DNA of 64,000 bases. It comes from Bacteroidota bacterium. GTDB taxonomy: Bacteria > Bacteroidota > Ignavibacteria > SZUA-365. The notes under the pieces are model-generated. The model searched no databases. It was not told where the DNA came from and saw only the letters and a program-made list of their open reading frames with translations. This document shows, piece by piece, positions 5,560 to 45,300 of the stretch; positions within the stretch are counted from its first letter, which is position 1, and every line of letters begins with the position of its first letter. Location of the stretch: assembly GCA_035362335.1 (NCBI GenBank), contig DAOSDL010000009.1:208-64207 (forward strand), given 5' to 3'. Position numbers and translations under genes: made by a program.

Positions 5560-8500
5560 CTATTTGGCCAGCACCATCGAAATCATGCGTACATACGATC
5601 CGCTCCGCAGGCGCGTGATATACACGCCGCTCGGCAAGGCGCTGCCGTCGAAATGTACACGATGGGTTCCTTCTTGCAGTGGTCCGTCATGCAGCACTCG
5701 TACGACGCGGCCATGCATATCCAACACTTCCAGCACGCCCGGCATTCCCGTCAAGGCATCGGAAACCACGTACTCGATCACCGTGACCGGGTTGAAGGGA
5801 TTCGGTGCATTTTGTCGGAGGAACAGGTCGCTTTTCAACGGCTCGATGCAATCACCCGACACGGTGATCAGCCCGTCGCTGTACACCACGGCGATGCCCG
5901 GTCCGAAGTCCGGAGTACCCGCGAAGAGCACCGGGTAACGGAACACCCCGAAGGCGCCGTCCCTGCCCTTTTGCGGCAACAGCAGGCATCGCAGCGAGAA
6001 CAACACGCCGTCATCAACAATGGGCGTACCCGAAGCGCCATCGATTGTCACACCGGTTGCGGTTTCGTTCATGGCCAACGGCCAACCCGCGGCGAGCGCG
6101 CCTTCCTTCTTCACTTCCAGAATGCGGACGGCGGCGGGGTCGACGTCGATGCGCATGGACATGCGCCGCAGCAGCGCGCGTCGGGGATTGCTGAATCGCA
6201 CCGGCACTGTCACCTCGCGTCCCATCATTCCGACGATATCCTGCGGCATGCTCAACAGCACCACCAGCAAACGCGACTGCACGAGTATGGACTGCGCGCA
6301 TTCCACTGAGCTGGTCTGATCGCTATTCACGATACAGCGAATCGTACTCAGTACATCGTCATCGCCGCCCGAGGGAACGCAGGTGAAGGAGAGCACGCCC
6401 GTGGCGCCCGGCTGCAAGTCCACACCGAGCACTTTGACCGGGGTTTCTCCGGTATTCAACGTGATATTCGCCGGCAGCATGAGCATGCCCGAAATACCTG
6501 TCAACGTGCGATTGCCATTGTTGTGAATACGCACCGTTACCGTAAATGGCGAGGGCACGTACGTATCGCTGCCGGCATCGTAACGGATGGTGTCGGGAAT
6601 GTCGCAATCGATAGCCAGCGAGGCGCTGTCCACGATCGGCGGGTGATGGAGCAGAATATCGCTGCCGCATTGCCGAGACGAGGCGGCGTCGGCGGTGACG
6701 GTGACGACGGGACGCAGTATTGTGCTGGCGCTTTGCGGCGCCGCCCGCAACAGCCATCCGATGGTGGCTATTTCACCGGGAGCGAGATCCACGCCCAGTG
6801 GCTTGGTGTAGCTTTCGCCCGCTTCCACCGATGCGATGGAGGGAAGCGAGAGCGTCGCGCGGATACCGCGCAGCGTGGTCGATCCGGTATTTTGAATTTC
6901 CACGGTGAATGAAAACGGTGCGGGGCGATAGCCCTGCGAGGCGCCAATGAACCAGAGTGTATCGGGCGCATCACAGCGTACGACAAAACCCGTGGGCTGC
7001 GGCGGAGCCGGCATCAGCGTCACCGACGCGGTACACTGCTGCAAATCGCCGCCAGCATAGGCGCGGACACGGAATATACGCGACCGCGGTACTGTGGCGG
7101 TATCGACCAGCATGCGCACATGCCATATCGCATTCGCGGAGGTACCGGCAGCGATGTTCCGCAGCACGATATCCAATTGCTCGCCGCTTTCGAGCTGTGC
7201 CCCTTGCGGCAGTTGGAGCGTTGCCACAACGGAGTCCAGCATGACGGGAGAAGGATTGCCAATCCGCGCCGACACCGTCAGCAGCGGATACAATCCAGAT
7301 TGCTCATCCACGCGCAGTGTATCCATATCGAGCGCGCATTGCACATCGAAGCTCGCCTCTTCCAGCGCGGGAATGCGCACCATGGTACAACAACGCTCGG
7401 GCGCGAGCCCGCGGGCGGCGCTCTCTATACAGACTGCTACAGAATCGACCTGCATGCCGCGTTGTACAACTGCTTTCCATGTGGCGGTGAACTGCGCTCC
7501 CGGAGCCAGAACGCCGACATCGATCACGGGAAGGGGCGTCTCGGCCGTAAGCCGGAGACGCTGCGGCACTTCGATACGCAGATTGCCCTGATAAGCGGAA
7601 GCGCTGCCCACATTGCGCAGCACCGCGCTGATCACCACGGTGTCGTCCTCGCCAGCCTGTTTGAGCAGTTCGCAACTCAGGCGCAACTGCGGCATGCGGG
7701 CGGCGGGGATGTGAATTTCCACCGGGCAGGGTGCGGTCTGTTGCAGAGTTTTTCCCTTGGCCTTCACCTGCACGAGCACCGTATCCATGCGCGCAACCGA
7801 GCGCGGCGTGGCGCGCAGCCACCAGCGCGCATTGCCCGTCTCGCCCACGGCGAGTGTGGATGGCAGCAGCATTTTCGCGGCCTGCTCGCCGGTGGCCATG
7901 GTCATATCGGGAGGCGGCAGGATTTCCGCGACCACCGAATCGGCGAGAGCAGTACCGATATTACGCACATCCACCGACACCAGGAAGGGCTCGGGCATGT
8001 ACCCGGCCAGCGAGTCCACGAAGTGCAGGGAGTCGGGTCCGGCACAGGCGAGTTCGAGCACGGGTCCTTTCACCGCTTCGATAAACATGCGCTTGGCACA
8101 CAAGGTCCCGCCACCGTTGGCCGCGAACACCGTGATTTTCACCGTGTCGTGCCTCGCATTGTCGCGATCGAGTACGCGCAAACGGAAGGAGCCTTCCACC
8201 GAAGCACCGGCGGCGAGAGAATCGCTCAACAATTTGAACGGTTGGTCGCTGCCGTCGATGGACAAATCCTCGCCCTGAAGCAACGCGGCGGTCACACCCT
8301 TGGCTGGAGTTGTGCCGTTGTTGGTCACACGCACGCGCACCGTCATGGGATTCGGATCGTATGCGCCGTCGATATACCGCACCGTATCCGGACCCTCCAC
8401 TGTGCAGGCGAGCGAGGGAATGGCATTGTCCACAATCACATCGAGCGGCGTGCAGCACTGCGCACCGGCAAAATTTTCGGCGGTGACATTCACGCAAATG

Positions 8501-40684: not shown

Positions 40685-41836
40685 TTACCTGGGATTGCTC
40701 AACTCGCGTGAAAGTGCGAGCGGACCGCTCAGTTTTCCTCGGGCGATCACGCGCTGGATTCCACCTCCGCGCTGAGCTACAATCCAGGCGTCGTCATTCT
40801 CGGTGGTCTTTGCGCGCATTGCAAACCAGGCGGCATCCGGACTGATGCTCAAGTCTTGCACCACAGCGGTGAAGGGCAGTAGTTCCGTCGCCGAGAGTCC
40901 GCCCGCAATGGGTCGGAGCAGCACCTCGGAACTATTCCAGTCGATGTATTCCGAACTGCCCGCAGTGACGCGGTGACTGGCATGCTCGAAGTAGGGCACA
41001 AAGCCAACTTCGCGCACGCCGAGTGAGGTGGCGTCGAAGGCCAAGGTGCGGAGATGCCTGCCCTGCTCGTTCCAGGCGGAAGCGTATAGCACTCCGGTCG
41101 CCGGATCGAATATGTTGTACCGAGTAAAGGTGAGGTCGGTGAACGTTTCGTATCCGGGAAAGGTCTCGAGCTGCCCGTTGCGATAACGCAGCAACGCGGC
41201 GAAGTTCCTCAGGTTACTATCCGCTGCCTGAACCACGATAATGCCGAGTAGGGCGGTCGCGCCGTCGGCCGAGAGCCACACCGCCTCGCAGCGGAGGCGG
41301 AACGCCTCCGACAATTCCGCAGGGAAGCGTTCACGCAAAAAAGCGGTGACGTCGGCACTTTCCATGCGCCAGGCCGCGCAATCGAACACGCAGATGCGCG
41401 CAGACCATGCGCTGCTGTCGGTGGATGTTTTCAGCTTGTCCCACACCACGAAGGCGGCGTGATGCCCGGCGCGTGAGAGAGCCGGCTCGGCCTCGTCCAG
41501 CAGCGCTTCGCGCTGCACATCCGACGAGATGGGCATGGGCACAGCGAGAATGCTGCCGTTGTCACAGCGTCCCCACAGCTGCATTCCCACAGCGCTGTGC
41601 GAGCGAAACAGCACGATGCCGTTGTCGGCCACGGTGCTCAGCCAGCGCACATCGCCTTCGAACACCGTCTCGTCTCGATGCGTGTACAGCCACTGCCGGT
41701 GCAGTCCTTCACCGCCAATGATATAGTAGGCAAATCGATCGGGTTGAACGTTATCCGCATCGTCGTCGCAGGCGAGGCAGAAGCACAGCAGCAGGGAGAG
41801 CAGTGCGATGCGCGATGTCATGGCGGGGGTCCTCAT
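40685..41836 (-). CDS. Hypothetical lipoprotein
   Basis: MRTPAMTSRIALLSLLLCFCLAC lipobox. No recognisable catalytic motifs. Confidence 0.5.
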   Translation of the reverse strand: MRTPAMTSRIALLSLLLCFCLACDDDADNVQPDRFAYYIIGGEGLHRQWLYTHRDETVFEGDVRWLSTVADNGIVLFRSHSAVGMQLWGRCDNGSILAVPMPISSDVQREALLDEAEPALSRAGHHAAFVVWDKLKTSTDSSAWSARICVFDCAAWRMESADVTAFLRERFPAELSEAFRLRCEAVWLSADGATALLGIIVVQAADSNLRNFAALLRYRNGQLETFPGYETFTDLTFTRYNIFDPATGVLYASAWNEQGRHLRTLAFDATSLGVREVGFVPYFEHASHRVTAGSSEYIDWNSSEVLLRPIAGGLSATELLPFTAVVQDLSISPDAAWFAMRAKTTENDDAWIVAQRGGGIQRVIARGKLSGPLALSRELSNPR

Positions 41837-41904: not shown

Positions 41905-42130
41905 TGGCTGAGTACGGGATACATTTGAAGAGATGAAAGAGAGCGGAGAGGATTTGTTGAGGTCGCATCCCCCCCGAATCCTGCGCCCCGCCGCATTCGA
42001 GCCAACGCAAGGACGGTAGAGACTCAAAGCCGCGATTCCTCTGAGCCCTCCGTGTTCGCGAAGCGCTCAGGGTTCTCTGGGCTAGCGAAGCTCGGTGTTC
42101 GCGAAGCGCTCAGGGTTCTCTGTGTTCCCG
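41905..42130. repeat. Small dispersed intergenic repeat (copy 2) with internal 45-bp tandem duplication
   Basis: GTGTTCGCGAAGCGCTCAGGGTTCTCTG occurs twice (42052-42079, 42097-42124). 5' part GAGTACGGGATACATTTGAAG matches the 22790 copy. Confidence 0.4.
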
Positions 42131-42200
42131 CGACGCCCCTCCTTACTCTCACCACCTCACTACTCTCATTCTTCATTTGCGTCTGAAACATTCGCCGCAT

Positions 42201-42220
42201 ATATTCGTCTATGCGAATAT
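42201..42220. promoter_or_regulatory. Putative ArsR operator (7-bp inverted repeat)
   Basis: ATATTCG-tctatg-CGAATAT, 16 bp upstream of the arsR ATG. Confidence 0.5.
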
Positions 42221-42235
42221 GCGAATGGATTTACC

Positions 42236-42619
42236 ATGACAAAGAAAGCAAGCACCGCCTCCTCTCTCGATGATCTCGTACTGCTCATGCAGGCGTTGGG
42301 CGATGCCAATCGTCTGCGTATACTCGCGCTGCTGATCGGCAGGGACGAGTTGTGCGTGTGCGACATTCAACGCGTGCTGGACATGCCGCAGCCCCGCGTT
42401 TCGCGCCATCTCAACATGCTGCGGCATGCGGGCTGCGTGCGCGCGCGGCGAAGCGGACGCTGGATGTACTACGCGTTGCGACGGGACAACGTGGCGCTGC
42501 TTGAATTGCTCGACGCGCTGAATCGCGGCTTCTCCATGTTGCCGGAATTCATTCACGACCGCAACTCCCTCGATCACACACCGGATCTGGTGTGTTGCAG
42601 CATTCCCCTCACCGACTAA
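42236..42619 (+). CDS. arsR: ArsR/SmtB-family metalloregulator
   Basis: wHTH with ELCVCD metal-binding motif. LGDANRLRILALL. Confidence 0.85.
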   Translation: MTKKASTASSLDDLVLLMQALGDANRLRILALLIGRDELCVCDIQRVLDMPQPRVSRHLNMLRHAGCVRARRSGRWMYYALRRDNVALLELLDALNRGFSMLPEFIHDRNSLDHTPDLVCCSIPLTD

Positions 42620-42628
42620 GGAAGGACC

Positions 42629-43702
42629 ATGAGCACCTCACCGCGCAAGCTCGGCTTTCTCGATCGCTATCTCACTGTGTGGATTTTTCTGGCCATGGGC
42701 GCCGGTGTGGCGCTCGGGCATTTCCAACCGGGTATAGCGGAGTTCTGGAACCGATTTCAATCGGGCACCACCAACATCCCCATTGCACTCGGGCTGATTC
42801 TGATGATGTATCCTCCGCTCGCGAAGGTGCGCTATGAGGAACTCGGTGACGTGTTCCGCAATCGTCGCGTGCTGCTGCTGTCGCTGGTGCAGAACTGGAT
42901 CATCGGTCCGGTATTGATGTTCGTGCTGGCGATCATCTTCCTTCCCGATCGTCCGGAATACATGACGGGACTCATTCTCATCGGTCTCGCGCGCTGTATC
43001 GCCATGGTGATCGTGTGGAATGAGCTGGCCTGCGGCGACAACGAATACGCGGCGGGGCTGGTGGCCTTCAACTCCATTTTCCAGGTGCTGTTCTATTCGC
43101 TGTACGCCTGGGTGTTCATCACCGTGCTGCCCACCTGGTTCGGTTTGGAAAGCATTGTGGTGAATGTGTCGATGGGCGACATCGCCGAGTCGGTGTTCAT
43201 TTACCTCGGCATCCCCTTTCTCGCGGGCATGCTCACGCGCGCAGCGTTGGTGAAGGCGAAGGGGAAGCAATGGTATCACGAGCGCTTCATCCCGCGCATT
43301 TCCCCCATCACTCTGATAGCGTTGCTGTTCACCATTTTCGTGATGTTCTCGCTCAAGGGCGAATTGATCGTGGAATTGCCCCTGGATGTACTGCGCATCG
43401 CCCTCCCGCTCCTGATTTATTTCGTGCTGATGTTTCTCGTGTCCTTTTTCATGGGACGCGTCTTCGGAGCGGATTATCCCAAAACAGCGACGTTGTCCTT
43501 CACCGCCGCGAGCAACAACTTCGAACTGGCCATCGCCGTGGCGGTGGCGGTGTTCGGTATCAGCTCCGGCGAGGCCTTCGCGGCCGTCATCGGTCCCCTC
43601 GTCGAAGTACCCGTGCTCATCGCTCTCGTCGCGGTGGCCTTGCGCCTTCGGGGGAAGTACTTCTCCGCCATTGACATTCGATTGAAAGGCGGCGCCTGTT
43701 GA
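42629..43702 (+). CDS. acr3: Arsenite efflux transporter, ACR3 family
   Basis: [24 protein letters not shown]-terminus. 10 predicted TM helices. RBS AAGGAAGG. Confidence 0.9.
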
Positions 43703-43773
43703 TCGCTCCGGCTCTTTCACGAGCCGGATACGGCACACAGCCGACGCTACACATTTTAGATCATGGAGCACAC

Positions 43774-45216
43774 ATGTCATCAACAGCATTTCACTCCGTT
43801 CTCGAAGACAGCGTACGCACACTCGCAACGCTCGAGGCCGATATTCCCGAAGCGCGACGCGACGTGTTGCGCGACATCGCGCAATGGATAGCGAAGCGAT
43901 GCAACGTCGGCGAGCGCGCGGACCTCGTGTTCATTTGCACACACAACTCCCGCCGAAGCCATATAAGCCAGATCTGGGCTCGCGCCCTGGCCTGGAAATT
44001 CGGCCTCGGCCGCGTGCGCAGCTTCTCGGGAGGCACGGAGGCGACAGCCTTCCATCCCAATGCCATACGCGCATTGCGCGAATTGGGTTTTTCCATCGAG
44101 TTGAAAGAAGGTGGCGACAATCCCCGCTACACCGTGTCCTTCGCCGGAAGCGCACCCACCATCGAAGCGTTTTCCAAAACATTCAACGACAGCTTCAATC
44201 CCTCGGCCGGCTTCGCAGCCATCATGACCTGCAACGAAGCCGACGAAGCTTGTCCGGTGGTGCCCGGCGCGGCTGCGCGGTTTTCCCTTCCCTCCATCGA
44301 TCCCAAACATGCCGACGGCACGGAACAGGAGACCGCGGAGTACCGCGAGCGCTCGTTGCGCATCGGAGCGGAAATGCTCTTTCTGATGCGACTGGCGTCC
44401 TCTCTGGTGGCGGAGGATTTGAAAAACGTGGTGCGTGAAAAATATGCGATGATCGCCGAGCAGTCGCGCGATCGCAATGCCTCGTCCTGCTGCGGCGCCA
44501 CATCGTCGTGCTGCGGCGACGGGATGACCTACACCATCATGGCCGATGACTACAGCGGTCGTGCGGGCTATGTGGAAGACGCCGATCTCGGTCTCGGCTG
44601 CGGCATCCCCACAGATGCGGCGCGGCTGCGTCCCGGCATGACTGTGCTGGATCTCGGCAGCGGTGCGGGCAACGATGCGTTCATCGCCGCGCGCAGCGTG
44701 GGCGATGAGGGACTGGTGATCGGCGTGGACATGACCGAGGCCATGATCGCCAAGGCCAATGAGAACAAAATCAAGGTGGGCGCTCGCAATGTGGACTTCC
44801 GTCTCGGAGAAATCGAGGCCTTGCCGGTGGACAGCGACAGCGTGGATGTGATTCTTTCCAATTGCGTGCTGAACCTCGTACCGGACAAGCGTGCGGCGTT
44901 TACCGAGATGCGCCGCGTACTCAAATCCAATGGGCACTTCGCCGTTTCCGATATCGTGCATGACGGCGATATGCCGCCGGCGCTGAAAAGCGTGGCCGAG
45001 CTGTACGCCGGCTGTGTGTCGGGCGCGATCCACAAGGACGAGTACCTCGCCTTGATCGCCGAAGCCGGCTTCACCGATGTGGAAATTTGCAAAGAGAAGA
45101 CCATCGATATTCCGGAGGATGTACTCCGCGAAGTGGCTTCCACCTTGCCCGACGACGTAGCCACATTGAACGCCACGCGCTTGCTGAGCGTTACTGTCCG
45201 CGCACGCAAGCCCTGA
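43774..45216 (+). CDS. arsM: Fusion protein: LMW-PTP-type arsenate reductase (ArsC) domain + arsenite S-adenosylmethionine methyltransferase (ArsM) domain
   Basis: N-terminal domain has CX5R P-loop VFICTHNSRRSHIS and the Cys pair CNEADEAC. C-terminal domain has VREKYA..SCCGATSSCCGDG cysteine pairs and SAM motif VLDLGSGAGND. Single uninterrupted ORF. Confidence 0.75.
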   Translation: MSSTAFHSVLEDSVRTLATLEADIPEARRDVLRDIAQWIAKRCNVGERADLVFICTHNSRRSHISQIWARALAWKFGLGRVRSFSGGTEATAFHPNAIRALRELGFSIELKEGGDNPRYTVSFAGSAPTIEAFSKTFNDSFNPSAGFAAIMTCNEADEACPVVPGAAARFSLPSIDPKHADGTEQETAEYRERSLRIGAEMLFLMRLASSLVAEDLKNVVREKYAMIAEQSRDRNASSCCGATSSCCGDGMTYTIMADDYSGRAGYVEDADLGLGCGIPTDAARLRPGMTVLDLGSGAGNDAFIAARSVGDEGLVIGVDMTEAMIAKANENKIKVGARNVDFRLGEIEALPVDSDSVDVILSNCVLNLVPDKRAAFTEMRRVLKSNGHFAVSDIVHDGDMPPALKSVAELYAGCVSGAIHKDEYLALIAEAGFTDVEICKEKTIDIPEDVLREVASTLPDDVATLNATRLLSVTVRARKP

Positions 45217-45267
45217 TCCCCGCACATTCGCGGATATCCGCACGCCCGGAGCGTTGTCGTCACGACG

Positions 45268-45300
45268 TTGTCGTCACGACGCTTCGGGCGTTGCTTTTCT
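45268..45300 (+). terminator. Weak candidate intrinsic terminator after the ars operon
   Basis: Short stem aCGCttcggGCGt followed by TGCTTTTCT. Stem only 4 bp. Confidence 0.2.

Follow-up and report, generated by a model that had tools for sequence, protein, structure and literature searches.

A 64,000-nucleotide stretch of a Bacteroidota contig (DAOSDL010000009.1, positions 208 to 64,207; hereafter the window) carries an arsenic-resistance (ars) operon, in which an arsenate reductase (ArsC) domain and an arsenite methyltransferase (ArsM) domain are encoded by one gene of 480 codons plus stop. Our analysis confirmed that this fusion is real and conserved and that the locus is a genuine arsenic-resistance operon of an otherwise ordinary kind, whose fusion is a lineage-specific variant. 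As a whole, the locus is probably an As(III)-inducible operon of an uncultured bacterium of the Bacteroidota lineage, with control by ArsR through a palindrome, the exporter Acr3 and a bifunctional reductase-methyltransferase that arose by a small deletion.

The fused arsC-arsM gene and its operon

The three genes of the operon are co-oriented on the forward strand, in the order arsR (42236-42619, 127 aa), acr3 (42629-43702, 357 aa) and a single open reading frame (ORF) for the fused protein (43774-45216, 480 aa). This order had been given by the original prediction, and it was borne out by the ORFs, their coordinates and the family assignments. ArsR, a repressor of the ArsR/SmtB family whose metalloid site is ELCVCD and which has VCC at its C-terminus, matched Pfam HTH_5 and scored 91.2 bits against NF033788, above the cut-off of 55. 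The arsenite efflux permease Acr3 matched Pfam SBF and scored 464.9 bits against TIGR00832 (cut-off 282.8), with residues 8-337 aligned to profile positions 1-327, and the ArsM part scored 326.3 bits against NF008823 (cut-off 263) over residues 213-480. Curated profiles backed three of the four assignments (ArsR/SmtB, ACR3 and ArsM), while the N-terminal domain of the fused protein (N-domain) stayed below threshold. The open frame of the fused gene spans 43699-45216; counted from the conserved ATG at 43774, its product is exactly 480 aa long. The TTG at 43699 was ruled out as the start, and 43774 was taken instead, because the 25 in-frame codons 5' of the ATG are not conserved and are unrelated in the ortholog at locus L001.

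To assess whether the single ORF is an artefact, namely a stop or frameshift lost between two ordinary genes by assembly or sequencing error, is to weigh two facts in its favour: all five closest relatives keep arsC and arsM as two genes, and the window is probably metagenome-assembled sequence. The 480-aa protein, however, recurred in independent assemblies. Its cluster (P0001) held six full-length 480-aa members and two shorter ones drawn from independent Logan, NCBI, JGI and ENA assemblies; the representative is the identical 480-aa protein, and one member is NCBI HOJ03622.1, labelled 'arsenite methyltransferase [Bacteroidota bacterium]'. A second cluster (P0002) was a 90 % identical ortholog from two further genomes (GCA_035914695.1 and GCA_022710915.1), with the same length, the same junction and the same synteny as in the window. 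When the fused genes of the window and L001 were compared codon by codon, they were of equal length, with a synonymous divergence (dS) of 0.58 and an overall ratio of non-synonymous to synonymous divergence (dN/dS) of 0.10 (N-domain 0.11, junction 0.21, ArsM 0.07); the window and the 90 % ortholog differed by 140 synonymous and 60 non-synonymous changes. This low dN/dS at equal length shows that the two halves are under selection in a single frame. An artefact therefore has next to no probability, a frameshift being excluded by the independent assemblies together with purifying selection across the junction in a diverged ortholog, and the continuous reading frame, on which the original prediction had asked for caution, holds.

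The ArsM domain comprises residues 214-480 (44413-45213, forward strand) and was identified by NF008823. In an alignment to ArsM structures 5evj and 4kw7, the Chlamydomonas (CrArsM) and Cyanidioschyzon (CmArsM) enzymes, C276 (44599-44601), C364 (44863-44865) and C414 (45013-45015) corresponded to the conserved arsenic-binding residues Cys72, Cys174 and Cys224 of CmArsM. The N-terminal cysteine pairs C239/240 and C246/247 (SCCG..SCCGDG) and the S-adenosylmethionine (SAM) motif VLDLGSGAGND were also present, so that all motifs quoted for the C-terminal ArsM in the original prediction were found, with a score above the curated threshold.

The five closest stand-alone relatives (loci L004 and L110-L113) have the order arsR-acr3-arsC-arsM, with arsC and arsM 57-139 bp apart. 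Comparison with their arsC tails and arsM heads placed the junction of the fused protein at LASSLVA (residues 207-213, 44392-44412, forward strand): the arsC tail runs to ...EMLFLMR, followed by LASSLVA and then by the ArsM head EDLKNVVREKY. According to this gene-end alignment with the unfused relatives, a small deletion in an ancestral arsR-acr3-arsC-arsM operon removed the arsC stop, the spacer and the arsM start codon.

As for the surroundings of these genes, a thioredoxin-like gene of 151-159 aa was observed directly 3' of arsM in L004 (5131-5586), L110 (5176-5643) and L111 (6609-7088), with an apparent lipoprotein signal on the protein in L110 and L111. In L112, the thioredoxin-like gene located downstream (6677-7132, 151 aa) is encoded by the other strand, and an ArsP/DsbD/thioredoxin cluster lies nearby in L110, L112 and L113. 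A homology search found no homologs of the relatives' flanking thioredoxin, ArsP and DsbD genes within the 64-kb window. In the window, a tandem 14-bp duplication (two copies of CGTTGTCGTCACGA) lies directly 3' of the fused gene at 45251-45278 and runs into a terminator-like hairpin (45277-45293, forward strand), a weak call from a consensus scan whose site count equals the chance expectation. Pfam searches of the flanking ORFs were uninformative.

The N-terminal domain and the coupling of reduction to methylation

The N-domain (residues 1-206, 43774-44391, forward strand) is a long-type arsenate reductase candidate with the low-molecular-weight protein-tyrosine-phosphatase (LMW-PTP) fold. A phmmer search of PDB sequences matched it to Bacillus subtilis ArsC (1jl3) with E=5e-10 in two blocks. 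In this alignment, C55 (43936-43938) corresponded to Cys10, R61 (43954-43956) and S62 to Arg16 and Ser17, C153 (44230-44232) and C160 (44251-44253) to Cys82 and Cys89, and D176 (44299-44301) to Asp105. The motif CTHNSRRS holds C55, R61 and S62, and CNEADEAC holds C153 and C160, so the CX5R(S/T) P-loop with its nucleophilic cysteine, the redox cysteine pair and the general acid aspartate are all present. In an alignment of the long-type family, FICTHNSRRS, the two CX6C cysteines and the aspartate of DPK were invariant in 15 of 15 members.

The fold of the domain was examined with an AlphaFold2 model built from this 15-member alignment, which reached a predicted local distance difference test (pLDDT) score of 93.2 and a predicted template-modelling score (pTM) of 0.91. 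The top 14 PDB matches of the model in Foldseek were all ArsC structures, each at probability 1.00, and ArsC2 of D. indicus, ArsC of B. subtilis and ArsC of S. aureus plasmid pI258 (template-modelling scores 0.72-0.80, on target) outranked true phosphatases. Relative to the solved ArsCs, the model has two additional helices at its N-terminus (residues 8-44), and residues 118-132 form a small insertion of beta structure. With the motifs present, the catalytic residues aligned and the fold matched, the earlier assignment of the N-terminal ~200 aa to an LMW-PTP-type arsenate reductase was upheld, whereas a canonical pI258-type label was not, as the domain belongs to a large long clade of ~205 aa.

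A search of 5.8 billion proteins with the N-domain only returned 6,217 significant relatives. Among the relatives listed, nearly all are stand-alone proteins of 200-250 aa, mostly from Bacteroidota, and the databases name them mostly 'protein-tyrosine-phosphatase' and otherwise 'arsenate reductase'. In 80 species-representative loci of long-type arsC, acr3 was adjacent in 36, arsM was directly upstream in 17 and arsR was in the locus in 31, with any of the three in 51. Hydrophobic N-terminal extensions resembling signal-peptide or lipoprotein signals were noticed in the stand-alone members P0161, P0191, P0228 and P0164, which is odd for a cytoplasmic thioredoxin-coupled reductase.

It is unlikely that the N-domain acts as a phosphatase, or serves ArsM in a regulatory or structural role, instead of being an arsenate reductase. 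The sub-threshold hidden Markov model scores, the family name at NCBI, the unusual P-loop, the two-helix extension, the beta insertion and the signal-like N-termini of some members would all fit such a function. Yet the equivalents of Cys82 and Cys89 are invariant, although a phosphatase does not need them, arsenate reductases outranked phosphatases in the fold search, and the genomic context is overwhelmingly one of ars genes. We conclude that the N-domain would work like a thioredoxin-coupled ArsC, judging from its aligned residues and modelled fold, and that it represents a divergent, apparently uncharacterised clade which fails curated thresholds.

Several points weigh against an arsenate reductase domain whose product feeds ArsM. 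The N-domain scored below curated cut-offs for both Pfam LMWPc PF01451 (20.7 against 23.2) and TIGR02691 (38.1 against 174.3), the match to the curated ArsC/LMWPc profiles being limited to residues 52-109, and its CTHNSRRS loop departs from the canonical CTGNSCRS. A literature search, with subscription-only papers outside it, found nothing on the CTHNSRRS motif or on a characterised member of the long clade. There is no thioredoxin gene in this operon, and the thioredoxin-like gene after arsM in the relatives looks exported and is absent from the window. Fusion of long-type ArsC is also clearly dispensable: this lineage apart, no fusion occurs in 85 loci with this domain, nor in any of the 80 species loci or the close relatives. 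Finally, Acr3 of the same operon competes for arsenite, and channelling is not required for resistance.

The substrate of the N-domain was considered as well. It might mainly reduce pentavalent methylated or aromatic arsenicals (MAs(V), DMAs(V), roxarsone-type) and feed these to ArsM, instead of or besides reducing arsenate. All five close relatives, and 17 of the 80 species loci, have long-type arsC next to arsM, the active-site loop is unlike that of canonical ArsC, and an ArsC2 reducing HAPA(V) is on record (PMC11730784). In 36 of the 80 loci, however, the domain occurs together with acr3, and arsM is often missing there, as would be expected for plain arsenate detoxification. Short ArsC of the canonical type also occurs in fusion with ArsM. 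We regard this substrate preference as improbable. It is likewise doubtful that the protein is a dedicated arsenate-to-methylarsenical machine, in which arsenite would pass from thiol to thiol without release or the N-domain would recycle MAs(V)/DMAs(V) into ArsM. No bacterial methylarsenate reductase was found in the literature, subscription-only papers being outside the search.

With arsenate as the substrate, the proposed mechanism would run as follows. An ArsR dimer would bind ATATTCG-N6-CGAATAT over its own -10 element and block transcription, until arsenite binding releases it. The transcript would then provide the arsenite exporter Acr3 and one bifunctional enzyme. In the N-domain, Cys55 would attack arsenate, and the Cys153/Cys160 cascade would free arsenite and leave a disulfide to be reduced by cellular thioredoxin. 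In the ArsM domain, C276, C364 and C414 together with the N-terminal cysteine pairs would bind arsenite for methylation by SAM. The fusion would fix a 1:1 stoichiometry and set the arsenite-producing site beside the arsenite-consuming site, so that arsenite made from arsenate may be preferentially methylated rather than exported by Acr3. The analysis itself shows the identities of the genes, the catalytic residues, the fold, the origin and conservation of the fusion and the cross-locus conservation of the palindrome. We infer the enzyme activities, the thioredoxin coupling, the hand-over of arsenite between domains, the ArsR binding and the promoter position, with the catalytic steps following what is established for ArsC of the pI258 type and for ArsM, and the proximity effect following from the architecture.

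That the two steps are coupled is a reasonable inference from these analyses. The recurrent independent fusions described below and the frequent adjacency of arsC and arsM support a functional link, without proving channelling; there were only two fused sequences of this type, which gave no inter-domain co-evolution signal.

ArsR and its candidate operator

A perfect inverted repeat, ATATTCG-TCTATG-CGAATAT (42201-42220), ends 16 nt before the arsR ATG and occurs once in the window. It had been put forward as a candidate operator, and this proposal was strengthened by its conservation across loci. The 20-mer was identical in L001 and L002 despite large indels in the surrounding intergenic DNA, and L004, a far more distant locus, has it unchanged as well. 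Half-sites with at most one mismatch were present at each of the ten loci with an ArsR of 88 bits or more against that of the window (the window itself, L001, L002, L004, L005, L085 and L110-L113), around spacers that varied between TCTATG, TTTATG, CATATG, CATAAG, CATAAA and CCTAAG. No further site with at most one mismatch was found in 865 kb of related loci, and an exact-match search of all 113 loci hit only five of the close-ArsR sites and no further copy. A right-half-site-like repeat, GCGAATGG (42221-42228, forward strand), lies directly 3' of the inverted repeat; in the window, L001, L004, L110 and L113 the inverted repeat is followed by such a repeat, of the form (C)GAAT(A/G).

The inverted repeat overlaps a putative promoter of arsR. 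A -35-like TTGCGT (42177-42182) precedes a -10-like TATATT (42200-42205, both forward strand) which overlaps the left arm; TTG(C/A) stands 17 nt from TATATT in nine of nine aligned relatives, and TATATT is conserved in all nine aligned loci. A sigma-70 scan called no promoter 5' of arsR, because TTGCGT matches only three of six positions; the promoter proposal comes solely from the cross-locus alignment. The TTG-17-TATATT arrangement suggests a sigma-70-like promoter, on which the repressor would cover the -10 element and the start site.

Where ArsR is more distant (66-78 bits), the palindromes differ in sequence, for example CATATGC-N8-GCATATG and ATATGCG-N6-CGCATAT, but occupy the corresponding position and likewise overlap the TATCAT of a TTGACA-17-TATCAT promoter. 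The recognition helices of the two groups also differ (PQY(S/A)VSRHL against PQ(P/T/A)(R/K)VSRHL). The ELCVCD motif was conserved in all relatives. A palindrome that varies with ArsR subtype is the pattern expected if an operator co-evolves with its repressor.

Two findings tell against the operator. Perfect 7-N6-7 inverted repeats numbered nine in the window where about four were expected, so the bare pattern is unremarkable, and the -10 element could account in part for the left arm being conserved. The motif with up to two mismatches was also matched in 15 of 100 shuffles, and its significance comes from cross-species conservation, not from the bare pattern. With such repeats common, the left arm coinciding with TATATT and a conserved divergent gene sharing the intergenic region, the inverted repeat might instead be kept for the -10 element, or for another factor that controls the divergent lipoprotein-like gene. 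There is little probability of this, since the two arms, the right one lying 13 nt downstream, are equally conserved across a variable 6-nt spacer, and the motif tracks ArsR subtype, with another palindrome in the same place at distant ArsR loci.

The divergent lipoprotein-like gene (40688-41836, reverse strand, ~383 aa) has no informative Pfam match. L110 is the one locus in which phmmer confirmed a homolog of its protein (E=3e-34); at the same position divergent from arsR, L001, L004 and L111-L113 have a gene that lacks annotation and is similar in size (378-401 aa). This gene may belong to the same regulon as the ars operon. Between it and arsR lies an exact 28-bp direct repeat (GTGTTCGCGAAGCGCTCAGGGTTCTCTG, 42052-42079 and 42095-42122, 43 bp apart), where chance would be expected to give none. 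L001 and L002 lack this stretch in their orthologous region, which marks it as a recent insertion or duplication. In L110 (2101-2120) and L113 (3519-3538), arsR was called from the ATG that falls within the operator palindrome's spacer. These two genes probably begin further downstream, and the annotated ArsR N-termini are likely too long.

Occurrence of ArsC-ArsM fusions and comparison with known systems

In the full-length search, the long-type N-domain was found fused to ArsM only in P0001 and P0002. This search was used for the tally, as any long-type two-domain protein would outscore single-domain matches in it. The N-domain search left out the fused protein of the window itself and P0002, and it was unfit for counting fusions; the library of representatives at 50 % identity held no fused representative for the window's cluster, so its fusion counts are lower bounds.

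A second type of fusion was much more frequent. P0065 (414 aa) joins a canonical short ArsC (CTGNSCRS) to ArsM, and the same architecture was present in 93 of 122 screened sequences, that is, the clusters listed by a P0065 search plus P0249 and P0285, giving at least 93 clusters. These short-type fusions (such as P0065, P0285, P0411 and P0419) are about 410 aa long, with lengths of 390-435 aa, and come mostly from metagenome-assembled genomes of Bacteroidales/Bacteroidota. They are named 'arsenite methyltransferase [Bacteroidales bacterium]', 'thioredoxin type arsenate reductase' or 'SAM-dependent methyltransferase/protein-tyrosine-phosphatase', and they sit in ars loci with arsR, acr3, ArsP and thioredoxin genes. 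According to Pfam searches of multi-stretch representative matches, the domains joined to ArsM include a second methyltransferase, CMD/AhpD, GNAT, MarR and LMWPc.

The N-domain of the window had no significant phmmer match to that of P0065 and reached 14.9 bits with that of P0285, and its ArsM half was closer to unfused ArsMs (68-72 %) than to the short-type fusions. Because the ArsM half is nearer to unfused ArsMs and the N-domains are barely alignable, the long-type and short-type fusions appear to have arisen independently, which suggests recurrent selection for coupling reduction to methylation. No description of an ArsC-ArsM fusion of either type was found in a literature search that had subscription-only papers outside it. 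The original prediction was thus right about the fusion, but the novelty it implied was overstated given at least 93 short-type clusters: the architecture is already common in public sequence data and apparently undescribed in searchable papers, and its novelty is modest.

These results do not overturn the current understanding of arsenic detoxification. Fusions of genes for consecutive enzymes are good evidence that both steps work together, and the window together with the abundant short-type fusions argues that arsenate reduction may feed methylation directly in many Bacteroidota, rather than efflux alone. The fusion is also the best available functional clue for the large family of long LMW-PTP-like proteins called 'protein-tyrosine-phosphatase' in ars operons. 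Were a dedicated machine the correct reading, more than 6,000 clusters under that label would gain a function, and its methylarsenical-recycling version would identify a bacterial methylarsenate reductase. The conserved palindrome provides a ready candidate operator for this ArsR subgroup, which would be of use in biosensor design.

The regulatory part of the operon resembles R773 ArsR/SmtB operators in having an A/T-rich palindrome over its own promoter and an ELCVCD site in helix 3 of the repressor. Against the R773 ArsR sequence, ELCVCD aligned to Cys32/Cys34. The ArsR of the window differs in lacking the third cysteine (Cys37) and in having the C-terminal VCC, and the half-site is specific to this ArsR subgroup. 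Compared with ArsC of S. aureus pI258, ArsC of B. subtilis and ArsC2 of D. indicus, the N-domain shares the fold, the CX5R(S) P-loop and the equivalents of Cys10, Cys82, Cys89 and Asp105. It is ~70 residues longer than these enzymes, with the two-helix extension at its N-terminus and the beta insertion, has CTHNSRRS instead of CTGNSCRS at ~23 % identity, and is fused to ArsM.

The nearest unfused operons (L004 and L110-L113) are like the window in gene order, ArsR subtype, operator and divergent lipoprotein gene, whereas their spacer between arsC and arsM and their thioredoxin-like gene 3' of arsM are both missing from the window. The short-type fusions share with the window the domain order of LMW-PTP ArsC followed by ArsM, the arsR/acr3 context and a homologous ArsM half, and differ in that their N-domain is a canonical ArsC of 135 aa while that of the window belongs to the long clade. 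Among published fusions, ArsR-ArsM has been described in Brevundimonas M20 (PMC10190100), and the reviewed ArsC fusions are ArsR-ArsC, Acr3-ArsC (M. tuberculosis), AqpS-ArsC (Salinispora) and ArsN-ArsC (PMC6205960). Like the protein of the window, these place consecutive or co-regulated steps of arsenic detoxification in one polypeptide. The published cases, however, join an enzyme to a transporter or regulator, while the protein of the window joins two consecutive enzymes, for reduction and then methylation.

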